The position numbers were made by a program, and so were the translations under genes. The notes below the pieces were generated by a model, which did not search any database, was not told the origin of the DNA, and worked only from the letters and a program-made list of their open reading frames with translations. 64,000 nt of DNA from a virus. Each line of letters begins with the position of its first letter. The stretch's first letter is position 1. Of the stretch, positions 53,734 to 56,259 are shown piece after piece. Location: IMG/VR virus record IMGVR_UViG_3300028830_000309. One strand, given 5' to 3'.

Positions 53734-55341
53734 TCAGGCGGTGCGCGGGTGCCCGTCGTCCTTCTTGTCCTCGGGGTGGTCGAAGACCGCGGCCTCCATC
53801 GTGAGGAAGGTTGCCGCGACTGAAGCGGCGTTCTCCAGAGCGGAGCGCGTGACCTTCACCGGATCGATGATGCCGGCCTCCACCATGTCGACGTACTTGC
53901 CGGTCGCGGCGTTATACCCGGTGCCGACGGGACTCTTGAAGCACTTCTCTTCCACGACGTCTGGGCTGGCTCCGGCGTTCTCGGCGATCTGACGGAGCGG
54001 CGCCTTCAACGCTGCTTGGACGATCCTGATGCCCGTCTGAACATCCGGGTCCTCGTCCTCGATGTTGAGACCCACCCAGCATGCGAGGAGCGCCATCCCG
54101 CCGCCCGGCACGATCCCCTCCTCCATCGCCGCGCGGGTCGCGTTGATCGCGTCCTCGATGCGCAGCTTCTTCTCGCGGAGTTCGGTCTCGCTGGCCGCGC
54201 CGACCTTGAGGACGGCGACGCCACCCGTGAGCTTCGCGATGCGGCCCGCCAGGGTCTCCTTCTCGTAGTCTTCCTTCGCCTCGTCCTTCTGCTTCGTCAG
54301 CTCGGCCACGCGCTCGGCGATGGCGTCCTTCTGCTCGGGCGCGCCGACGACCGTCGTGTGGTCCTTCGTGGAGATGACGCGCGCCGCCTTGCCCAGCCAC
54401 TCCATTTCGAACTTCTCCAGGTCGTGACCGGTCTCGCGGGAGACGACCGTGGCTCCGGTGAGCACGGCGATGTCCTGCAGGTTGGCCTTGCGGCGGTCGC
54501 CGTAGCCCGGAGCCTTGATGGCGAGCGAGCGGAACGAGCCTTTGAGCTTGTTCACGATCAGGGTCGGCAGGGCGTCACCCTCGATGTCTTCGGCGATGAT
54601 CACGAGGTCGAGGACCTGCTTCCCCGCAAGGGCGTTCAGCACGGGCAGCAGGTGCGCGACGTTCGAGATTCGGCCGTCGTAGATCAGGACGTCGACGTTC
54701 TGGTAGACCGCCTCCTGGCGCTCGCCGTCGGTGATGAAGTGCGGTGCCAGGTACCCCTGGTCGAACTGCATCCCCTCCTTGATTTCCTGGGTGATGCCGA
54801 CCTTCGAAGAGGCCTCGACGGTGATCGGGCCGTCCTTGATGACGTCGATGGCCTCCGCGATCAGCTTGCCGACTTCGGCGTCCTGCGAGGAGATGGTCGC
54901 CACCTGCTCGATCGTGGCCTTGTTCCCCGCGACCTTGATCGCCATCTCCTTGAGGCGGTCGGTCACGATCTGGACGGCCTTCTGGATGCCCGTGCGGATG
55001 CCGATGGGGTTCGCCCCGGCCGCCAGGTTCTTCAGGCCCTCCTTCACGAGGGCGTCCGTGAGGAGCGTGGCGGTCGTCGTTCCGTCACCGGCGGCCGTGT
55101 TCGTCTTGGACGCGACCTCCTTCACGAGTTCCGCGCCCATGCTCTCGAGCGGGTCGGAGAGGACGATCTCGCGGGCGATGGTCACGCCGTCGTTCACGAT
55201 GCTGGGTGCGCCGTACGGCTTCTGCAGGGCGACGTTGCGACCTTTCGGGCCGAGCGTGATCTTCACGGCCGCCGCGAGCTTCGAGACGCCGTCAGCCATC
55301 TTCTGGCGGGCGACGTCTCCGGAGGTGATGTCCTTGGACAT
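53734..55341 (-). CDS. groEL: Chaperonin GroEL (535 aa)
   Basis: Start ATG 55341 (MSKDIT). TLGPKGRN, GDGTTTAT, KAPGYGDRRK, GGVAVLKVGA, EDAINATRAAMEEGIVPGGG. No GGM tail. Confidence 0.95.
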   Translation of the reverse strand: MSKDITSGDVARQKMADGVSKLAAAVKITLGPKGRNVALQKPYGAPSIVNDGVTIAREIVLSDPLESMGAELVKEVASKTNTAAGDGTTTATLLTDALVKEGLKNLAAGANPIGIRTGIQKAVQIVTDRLKEMAIKVAGNKATIEQVATISSQDAEVGKLIAEAIDVIKDGPITVEASSKVGITQEIKEGMQFDQGYLAPHFITDGERQEAVYQNVDVLIYDGRISNVAHLLPVLNALAGKQVLDLVIIAEDIEGDALPTLIVNKLKGSFRSLAIKAPGYGDRRKANLQDIAVLTGATVVSRETGHDLEKFEMEWLGKAARVISTKDHTTVVGAPEQKDAIAERVAELTKQKDEAKEDYEKETLAGRIAKLTGGVAVLKVGAASETELREKKLRIEDAINATRAAMEEGIVPGGGMALLACWVGLNIEDEDPDVQTGIRIVQAALKAPLRQIAENAGASPDVVEEKCFKSPVGTGYNAATGKYVDMVEAGIIDPVKVTRSALENAASVAATFLTMEAAVFDHPEDKKDDGHPRTA

Positions 55342-55358
55342 GGTGGTGAGGTAGGTAG

Positions 55359-55817
55359 TTACTTCGTGGGTTCGGTGGCGTTCTGCGGTCTGCCGTGCGA
55401 GCACTTCGTGACGCTGACGCCGCTCATCGGCGGGAAGAGCGCGGCAAAGACTTCTCCGGCCGGAACGCGATGCGGCCACTCGACGAGTTCACGTACGGCC
55501 TGGGCGGCTTGCTCTTCCAAGCTCGATGTCTTCCCACCCTCCAGTTCCTTCAGGATGCTGCCGAGGAGGGACATCGCGACTCGGATGTCCGTCGCGTCGG
55601 CCCGGTTGAAGTCCAGTTCCACGCCCGAGATCACGGCGCCGGCCTTCACGAGCCCGAGTTCCACCGGCTGGTCGATGCGCACCTTCCCCTCGTGGATCGT
55701 GATGGTGCGATGGAGCGACGCGTCCTTCCCACTCTTCCGGCGCAGCGTGAGTTCGTAGCGCTTCCCCTGGATGGGCGTCAGCTGGACGGACGTGGAGTGC
55801 GACATGGGGGTGAGCAT
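55359..55817 (-). CDS. Hypothetical protein between groES and groEL
   Basis: 152 aa; overlaps the upstream small ORF by 1 nt (TAATG). Confidence 0.6.
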   Translation of the reverse strand: MLTPMSHSTSVQLTPIQGKRYELTLRRKSGKDASLHRTITIHEGKVRIDQPVELGLVKAGAVISGVELDFNRADATDIRVAMSLLGSILKELEGGKTSSLEEQAAQAVRELVEWPHRVPAGEVFAALFPPMSGVSVTKCSHGRPQNATEPTK

Positions 55818-55912
55818 TAGATGAGCGGGAGCGCGACGGCCGAGAGATAGATGCCGATGGCGACGCCGAGCAGGATCAGGACGCCGCGCTGCAGCCAGTC
55901 GGTGGCGTTCAC
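55817..55912 (-). CDS. 31-aa single-TM peptide (not in ORF track)
   Basis: VNATDWLQRGVLILLGVAIGIYLSAVALPLI; coupled to the groES stop and the next start. Confidence 0.55.
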   Translation of the reverse strand: MNATDWLQRGVLILLGVAIGIYLSAVALPLI

Positions 55913-56205
55913 GCCGTCGTGATGACGGCCTTCACGTCGGCCTCGGAGATGACCATCAGGGTCTCCCCGTCGACCTCGATCTCGTCCGCGGCGAACTTCG
56001 CGAAGAGCACGCGGTCGCCGACCTGCACGACCATCGGGACCACGGCACCGTCCTCGAACTTCCCGGGTCCGGTGGCGATCACGTCGCCGCGGTCGGTCTT
56101 CCCGCGCTCGACGGTATCGGGCAACTCGATGCCGGCTGCGGTCTTCGTCTCGCGTACGGGGCGGACGACGACGCTGTCTCGGAGGGGGTGCAGGGTGGTG
56201 GACAT
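55909..56205 (-). CDS. groES: Co-chaperonin GroES (98 aa)
   Basis: LHPLRDSVVV, KTAAGIELPD, GDVIATGPG, VQVGDRVLFAKF, VISEADV. Confidence 0.95.
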   Translation of the reverse strand: MSTTLHPLRDSVVVRPVRETKTAAGIELPDTVERGKTDRGDVIATGPGKFEDGAVVPMVVQVGDRVLFAKFAADEIEVDGETLMVISEADVKAVITTA

Positions 56206-56230
56206 GGCGAATGTGGAATGGATCGGAGTC

Positions 56231-56259
56231 AAGGTAGCGAGCCGCGCGCCGGGATTCAA
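56231..56259 (-). promoter_or_regulatory. Sigma70-like promoter of the groES-groEL operon
   Basis: TTGAAT-N17-TACCTT about 25 nt upstream of the groES ATG. Confidence 0.55.

Follow-up and report, generated by a model that had tools for sequence, protein, structure and literature searches.

A pair of chaperonin genes, groES and groEL, lies on the minus strand of the 64,000-nucleotide (nt) IMG/VR virus record IMGVR_UViG_3300028830_000309 (the whole of this stretch is called the window below), and the evidence gathered here identifies it as a genuine phage-borne pair. The reading we favour, with a probability of about 0.8, is that of a phage-encoded GroES/GroEL system that was captured once and inherited within a clade of phages, with the two open reading frames (ORFs) between the genes in the window being an accessory insertion. 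The genes stand at the head of a single long run of tightly packed minus-strand genes extending from 56205 to about 50000, groES being the first, in a window whose G+C content (GC) is 63-72%. An earlier note, made from the sequence, had described groES, a 31-amino-acid (aa) transmembrane peptide, a 152-aa protein and groEL as tightly coupled; all four are present, joined by overlaps or by gaps of 5-17 nt along the run. The features concerned are as follows.

56231-56259, minus strand: candidate sigma-70-like promoter TTGAAT-17 nt-TACCTT, read from the sequence in the 137-nt divergent intergenic region upstream of groES
55909-56205, minus strand: groES (Cpn10), 98 aa, first gene, ATG at 56205; Pfam PF00166 (E=3e-21), PHROG 3188
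55817-55912, minus strand: 31-aa ORF with one predicted membrane helix; its GTG start overlaps the groES stop (GTGA)
55359-55817, minus strand: 152-aa ORFan without Pfam or PHROG match; its ATG overlaps the stop of the 31-aa ORF (TAATG)
53734-55341, minus strand: groEL (Cpn60), 535 aa, after a 17-nt gap from the 152-aa ORF; Pfam PF00118 Cpn60_TCP1 (E=4.5e-67), PHROG 5725 'chaperonin groEL' (E=2.4e-147)
53201-53728, minus strand: RuvC-like Holliday-junction resolvase, 5 nt after groEL; PHROG 159 (E=1.1e-11), Pfam RuvC at E=0.001, below the cut-off

Phage genes lie on both sides of the pair. The plus strand carries the terminase large subunit, portal, protease, scaffold, major capsid protein (27068-27973), tape measure and tail proteins, followed by an endolysin (47232-47975), and to the right of the chaperonin genes are a tRNA-Met, a Rad52-like protein, a phage exonuclease and a deoxynucleoside monophosphate (dNMP) kinase. 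A recombinase-like gene, the exonuclease and the dNMP kinase are nearby on the same strand as the chaperonin operon, and with RuvC downstream the pair sits, as had been noted, in the early/DNA-metabolism arm. The same DNA is found on three other Joint Genome Institute contigs at 99.9-100% identity, and also in four bioreactor metagenome runs of one study. Moreover, the window is colinear over about 50 kb (63241 down to 13975) with the IMG/VR provirus UViG_3300009094_001034 (G001), which is 97 kb long, 80% complete according to CheckV, and carries groES-groEL-ruvC. Between the two, the capsid proteins are 57-58% identical, the GroELs 59% and the exonucleases 47%, with values of 32-40% for portal, terminase, RuvC and dNMP kinase.

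These results bear directly on the possibility, raised by the earlier note itself, that we are looking at the host's own groE locus or at a host/phage assembly chimera. The window GroEL is 50-62% identical to bacterial GroELs, and many GroEL-bearing 'phage' records are truly host DNA, 'Acinetobacter phage MD-2021a' being an example. However, the phage genes on either side, the recurrence of the same junctions in three other assemblies and four runs, the repetition of the groES-groEL-ruvC order in several other phage-type contigs, the lack of the heat-shock operator CIRCE that the cellular sister possesses and the colinearity with a provirus all speak for a phage locus. Because of the phage flanks, the repeated occurrence and the colinearity, we take both the host locus and the chimera to be out of the question for practical purposes.

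Other comparisons were less productive. Since the four copies of the window DNA are 99.9-100% identical, the within-population ratio of non-synonymous to synonymous substitution is uninformative. Some short 'joints' in the aligned run contigs were traced to conserved stretches of GroEL from other organisms, 90% alike, and were disregarded. No matches were returned by megablast of the window against GenBank phages, by a single-sequence scan of IMG/VR with GroEL, or by a scan of the species-genome collection with alignments of the capsid protein and the exonuclease. The term 'ordinary-sized' in the earlier note is uncertain, as the database lists a 108-kb contig carrying the window GroEL and the colinear provirus reaches 97 kb at 80% completeness.

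The two proteins make up a functional-looking group I system, with a GroES lid and a GroEL ring, as far as can be judged from their sequences. GroEL scores 227 bits against Cpn60_TCP1 (cut-off 34.3) over profile positions 1-486 of 490, its best matches in the PDB are bacterial GroELs (E down to 1e-170), and it is 51% identical to E. coli GroEL. Alignment to the E. coli protein bears out the earlier description of a GroEL that keeps GDGTTT and the aspartate of EDAINAT but lacks a GGM tail: D52, GDGTTT with D87, and D398 (in EDAINAT) are all kept, and the C-terminus, ...HPEDKKDDGHPRTA, comes shortly after the last helix without any Gly/Met tail. A Gly/Met-rich C-terminal tail is common among GroELs without being universal. 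The apical residues with which E. coli GroEL binds GroES and substrate are Y199, S201, Y203, F204, L234, L237, L259, V263 and V264, and in the window GroEL seven of these nine are identical (Y199, F204, L234, L237, L259 and V264) or conservatively replaced (V263 by Ile). GroES, in turn, scores 75.7 bits against Cpn10 (cut-off 21.1; profile positions 2-93 of 93), is 40% identical to E. coli GroES with both the mobile loop and the roof hairpin present, and is 54-58% identical to the GroES of the phage relatives and of the cellular relative.

The history of the pair is best followed through GroEL, whose nearest homologues among 5.8 billion proteins are only 55-62% identical to it. In a maximum likelihood tree of 36 sequences, with which a quick tree of 79 rows agrees, the window GroEL belongs to a monophyletic set of seven together with P0002, P0004, P0005, P0007, P0023 and P0027 (ultrafast bootstrap 100, SH-like approximate likelihood ratio test 98). 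The sister of this clade is formed by P0003 and P0008 (support 100/99), and the next clade out holds sequences labelled as candidate-phyla bacteria. All six other members of the clade are found in phage-type neighbourhoods. Four of them have a gene with a Cpn10 match directly before groEL; on the P0004 contig, which ends within the preceding gene, that gene has no recorded family. In four of the six (the provirus locus of P0005, called L008, as well as L156, L159 and the P0004 contig) groEL is directly followed by a gene matching RuvC, and the remaining two have an ORF of similar size (159-163 aa) in that place, in one case immediately next to groEL and in the other separated from it by a 55-aa ORF. 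Farther along, these loci carry DUF4406, primase or single-stranded-DNA-binding protein, lysis and tail genes. Hints of the host come from sortase and CHAP domains in one relative and a weak SLH match in another. A more distant relative with a 48%-identical RuvC has no chaperonin genes within 2.4 kb upstream, and none were seen within 10 kb of the exonuclease relatives in phages sharing only that gene. With no chaperonin genes in these stretches of the RuvC-only and exonuclease-only relatives, the pair is the mark of a narrow clade.

The cellular sister P0008 (locus L158) is a chromosomal groES-groEL at 62% GC beside dnaA, dnaN, rnpA and yidD, with a CIRCE, at two mismatches, 20 nt ahead of groES and a 30-nt groES-groEL spacer. 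It is thus a bacterial operon of the CIRCE/HrcA kind, and the phage copies resemble it in gene order, GC and leader style and find in it their closest sequence kinship. In contrast, they have neither its CIRCE, its 30-nt spacer and its dnaA/dnaN/rnpA neighbours, nor its tail: both cellular sisters end in a Gly/His/Met tail, which is missing from all seven phage GroELs, these ending just after a PEKK-like motif. CIRCE was not found at up to four mismatches anywhere in the window, in agreement with the earlier note, nor at that threshold in the three phage relatives scanned. Terminal branches are 0.41-0.59 in four phage members, the window included, and 0.10-0.15 in the subgroup of P0004, P0005 and P0007, compared with 0.17 and 0.28 in the cellular sisters.

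The leaders of the window genes provide a further link to the cellular sister. Over the 20 nt before 46 gene starts in the window, C makes up 43-46% and G 21-22%, which is common to both arms of the phage, and a Shine-Dalgarno-like (SD-like) 4-mer is found at only 7 of the 46. The leaders often contain CCACC-like runs, and leaders were also checked in L158, L156 and L157. The leader style that the earlier note called phage-type is therefore real as far as its C-rich, SD-less character in both arms is concerned; however, the same style is used on the cellular relative's chromosome (L158), which makes it an unusual translation-initiation habit of the host lineage rather than a peculiarity of the phage. 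The suggested phage-type promoter fares less well. The candidate site upstream of groES scores below the threshold of a sigma-70 consensus scan, and at up to two mismatches it is single in the window, bar one match at chance level; because the site is unique, a recurring phage promoter is not shown.

The sister of the phage clade being a cellular groESL with CIRCE, tail, similar GC and the same leaders, a single ancient capture from the host lineage, after which the pair was passed on vertically in the phages, is the simplest reading of these sequence relationships. A phage ancestor would have taken up groES-groEL once from a bacterial lineage close to its host, and the pair would then have descended vertically within a clade of roughly 60-100-kb phages, some of them integrated, in the fixed order groES-groEL-ruvC. 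The HrcA/CIRCE operator and the Gly/Met C-terminal tail would have been lost along the way, and today the pair stands first in a long leftward operon of translationally coupled genes for early functions and DNA metabolism. With CIRCE lost, the pair is apparently expressed with the phage programme and not as part of the host stress response. During infection it may fold phage proteins (capsid, lysin or other), freeing the phage from the host's chaperonin supply; the private folding machine for capsid or beta-helix proteins proposed in the earlier note is a reasonable inference. Finally, the 31-aa peptide and the 152-aa ORFan would represent a lineage-specific insertion at the junction of the groES stop and the groEL leader.

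A number of observations weigh against one or another part of this account. Two apical residues of GroEL depart from the E. coli protein, S201A and Y203H, and of these it is Y203H that counts here, together with the change of E461 to Ser at the ring interface, where R452 is kept. The mobile-loop tripeptide of the window GroES is Ile-Glu-Leu where the phage and cellular relatives all have LVI or IVI, placing Glu at the central position at which every relative has Val, and this residue could weaken binding to GroEL. What would tie the capture to the host lineage in particular is confined to the resemblance that the cellular sister shows in GC and in the style of its leaders. Both inserted ORFs have strong coding signatures and are tightly coupled to their neighbours, so that they may have a role connected with the chaperonin. 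Lastly, no RNA runs are listed as carrying this stretch. As to the Glu, polar or charged residues are reported for this position in 23% of viral GroES proteins (Marine et al. 2017, PMC5649160).

The pair might also be viewed as lysogenic-conversion cargo, whose expression from the prophage would provide the lysogen with additional chaperonin capacity or stress tolerance, and not as an aid to the lytic cycle. The closest colinear relative is indeed classed as a provirus, G001, which has a tyrosine integrase at its edge and is embedded in a 751-kb metagenome contig (Ga0111539_10000004), and another relative in the clade sits inside a 287-kb contig (JBJSWA010054802.1). However, the pair heads a coupled operon with RuvC and does not lie at a prophage end under separate control, CIRCE, the stress operator, is gone, and there is no integrase among the window genes scanned. 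We consider such a role unlikely, and retain the phage-encoded system, captured once and used in infection, as our working interpretation.

We turn now to the interruption of the operon. The gap between groES and groEL in the window measures 570 nt and holds the two ORFs. Both appear to be real genes. The 31-aa ORF has a GC at third codon positions (GC3) of 0.94 and a single strongly hydrophobic helix (Kyte-Doolittle mean over 19 residues of 2.48), and the 152-aa ORF has values of 0.64, 0.46 and 0.86 at the first, second and third positions, which is coding-type in this genome; GC3 in groES and groEL is 0.92-0.93. Independent gene callers predicted both in three metagenome assemblies. The 31-aa ORF has no family match and is not present in the relatives. 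A search of 5.8 billion proteins with the 152-aa protein retrieved only itself, a single-sequence scan of IMG/VR with it gave no matches, and it has no counterpart anywhere in the 97-kb provirus relative. The matches reported by an exhaustive HMMER search of 1.8 billion proteins were rejected as spurious, these being long repeat proteins whose scores were sums of weak 38-residue matches. Structure prediction yielded nothing usable for this protein: the AlphaFold2 (AF2) model has a mean predicted local distance difference test score (pLDDT) of 48, and the Atlas model has a predicted template-modelling score of 0.26 with structural neighbours all at a TM-score below 0.45. A complex prediction of the 152-aa protein with GroEL and GroES scored 0.00, with low-confidence partners (pLDDT 35-37), and so speaks neither for nor against an association.

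A variant contig from run X2, which co-occurs with the window and is about 94% identical to it overall, carries about 30 substitutions and a net in-frame insertion of 3 nt within 75 nt of the N-terminal part of the 152-aa ORF (window 55674-55817). Of the listed changes, only a few lie in groES and the 31-aa ORF beside it; 11 further differences are unlisted. By this comparison the N-terminal part of the ORF looks like a local hypervariable patch, and the protein appears to be fast-evolving in the co-occurring strain.

Comparison with the relatives indicates what kind of interruption this is. The 31-aa and 152-aa ORFs are missing from all six relatives of the phage GroEL clade. In five of these groES and groEL overlap by 4 nt or lie 15-21 nt apart, and the sixth, the provirus locus L008, has an unrelated 50-aa ORF (L008 4827-4979) at the same junction, its start overlapping the groES stop. 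By eye this ORF had seemed AP2-like, an impression dropped when Pfam gave no match even at an E of 10. The window, L008, L156 and L159 share a TAA and a CCACC-type leader directly before groEL, so that each insertion falls precisely at the point where the groES stop meets the native groEL leader. No repeats bracketing the two-ORF insert were found. Among the best 80 GroEL loci in IMG/VR, GroES lies just upstream in 40, with gaps of 11-185 nt, and just downstream in one; none of the 80 has a gap above 185 nt. The groES-x-y-groEL synteny, for which the earlier note proposed a search, is seen in none of these 80 loci and in none of the six clade relatives. The interruption of the operon is real and rare, yet these loci make it look like a private insertion into a junction that tolerates such additions.

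The earlier note had suggested that the intervening genes may be cofactors, and a version of this idea is that the 31-aa peptide and the 152-aa protein are dedicated to the chaperonin, for instance as a membrane tether or a substrate adaptor, and are co-translated with GroES and GroEL. The overlaps with groES and between the ORFs, the 17-nt gap to groEL and the coding-type GC3 values of 0.94 and 0.86 would suit such a role, as would the co-occurrence of the insert with the lineage-specific Val-to-Glu change in the GroES mobile loop, which is the only oddity found to accompany it. However, none of the six clade relatives has the ORFs and L008 has a different one in their place, the 152-aa protein has no homologue and appears to evolve fast, and coupling by start/stop overlap is the general rule along the whole operon and not peculiar to the two inserted ORFs. 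Because the relatives lack these ORFs and the 152-aa protein is without relatives of its own, the cofactor idea is unsupported, and we regard it as improbable. The more elaborate proposal, that the two products modify the chaperonin (through membrane anchoring or substrate choice, for example) and that the change from Val to Glu in GroES is an adaptation to a three- or four-part machine, seems to us more doubtful still. On the sequence evidence the two ORFs are most likely accessory genes of the 'moron' type, carried along by the operon's translation and separate from the chaperonin itself. RuvC is followed, with a 4-nt overlap, by a 56-aa ORF (window 53037-53204) that has two hydrophobic stretches, and small membrane-type ORFs thus recur along the operon and are not restricted to the chaperonin gap.

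Several known systems can be set beside the pair. On virome contigs with GroEL, a co-chaperonin gene was present on 133 of 337, with 63 in the order GroES>GroEL (Marine et al. 2017, ISME J, PMC5649160). Like these virioplankton operons, the window combines a GroEL of bacterial type and a GroES of its own, placed upstream on the same strand, in a contig of phage genes, and its Ile-Glu-Leu loop recalls the polar or charged mobile-loop residue of some viral GroES proteins in that study. It differs from them in coming from a bioreactor, in its 65% GC and in being split by two ORFs over a 570-nt gap; its clade is small and separate, with the groES-groEL-ruvC order and a tail-less GroEL. The small-heat-shock-protein neighbour of the marine contigs is not seen beside the window pair. 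Among cultured phages, the 160-kb Flavobacterium phage vB_FspM_immuto has an annotated adjacent GroES-GroEL pair, which likewise places co-chaperonin and chaperonin genes in a genuine phage genome, and similar GroELs occur in large Bacteroides, Vibrio and Cellulophaga phages. However, the immuto GroEL is only 46% identical to that of the window and branches elsewhere in the GroEL tree, and genomes of this type are 157-195 kb long and have pairs without intervening genes. Bacteroides phage SJC03 has a small ORF directly before its GroEL. More generally, 227 of 50,697 GenBank phage records have a GroEL match, most of them from phages of 150-350 kb, and the few that also match the window GroES consist largely of host DNA or of fragments without annotation. 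For example, 'Acinetobacter phage MD-2021a' (CAKLQH020000021.1 / CAKLQF020000019.1, L005) has groS-groL among glpK, glpD, pckG, acrB and htpX, and these records are parts of a bacterial chromosome filed as phage.

The chaperonins EL gp146, OBP gp246 and AR9 gp228 are about 25% identical to GroEL and independent of GroES, those of OBP and AR9 being single rings, and the substrate tested with this type was an endolysin (PMC9598537). The window phage resembles EL, OBP and AR9 in encoding a GroEL-like ATPase presumed to fold phage proteins. Unlike them, as that paper describes them, it has a GroEL that is 51% identical to that of E. coli with the GroES-binding surface kept, and its own groES 570 nt upstream. 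With T4 gp31 and RB49 CocO, both of which are without the roof hairpin (Marine et al. 2017, PMC5649160), it shares the supply of a GroES-type lid; whereas T4 and RB49 supply only the lid and use the host GroEL, the window phage encodes both partners and keeps the roof hairpin. The earlier note's background, in which phage GroELs are known mainly from giant phages and work without GroES, was thus incomplete, viral GroES>GroEL operons having been published in 2017 (PMC5649160). Nor is a complete pair as unusual as was claimed, given the 133 of 337 virome contigs in that study, the immuto pair and the 40 of the best 80 IMG/VR loci with GroES upstream.

What this analysis defines is a coherent clade of uncultured phages with a complete bacterial-type GroES/GroEL pair at a fixed place and an identifiable nearest cellular relative. 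The wholly viral-looking contigs of the clade are about 60-100 kb long, and some of its members are integrated. Within this single lineage one can see the takeover of a chaperonin by phages, with loss of the heat-shock operator, loss of the C-terminal tail and faster protein evolution, the latter by the long branches of four members. The clade also offers natural variants, among them the lid-loop Glu and the inserts between groES and groEL, for testing the effects of lid-ring affinity and of the cavity tail. The general picture is unchanged, as viral GroES/GroEL operons had already been described in 2017: the original observation is accurate and the biology coherent, the kind of system was already known, and the 'interrupted operon' is best explained as an accessory insertion.

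Some further features of the window concern the phage genome at large. The tRNA-Met (CAT; 58717-58791) has phage genes on both sides, so it is phage-encoded and not an integration site. The exonuclease is a 490-aa protein (60446-61918) with a match to PHROG 284 (E=9e-61) and metallophosphoesterase-like motifs, and its relatives, 27-41% identical, come from about 60 metagenome contigs, of which many bear TARA or other marine-looking names and none carries chaperonin genes close by. As to the siphophage label of the earlier note, no sheath or baseplate family was matched among the window proteins, nor was any tail-tube family, and the tail genes have no Pfam match; for a 398-aa tail protein the PDB sequence search was empty, and its AF2 model, built from a two-row alignment, has a pLDDT of 29. 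The DruE-like helicase region at the left end (1-10.8 kb) has no counterpart in the colinear provirus. Next to it, two MORC-like GHKL ATPases and a long DruA-like gene (11053-16467) correspond to 54368-59652 of G001 (L163) at 46-53% identity. This module adjoins the terminase in both genomes, and since it is kept there in both, we conclude that the defence-like module belongs to the phage genome.

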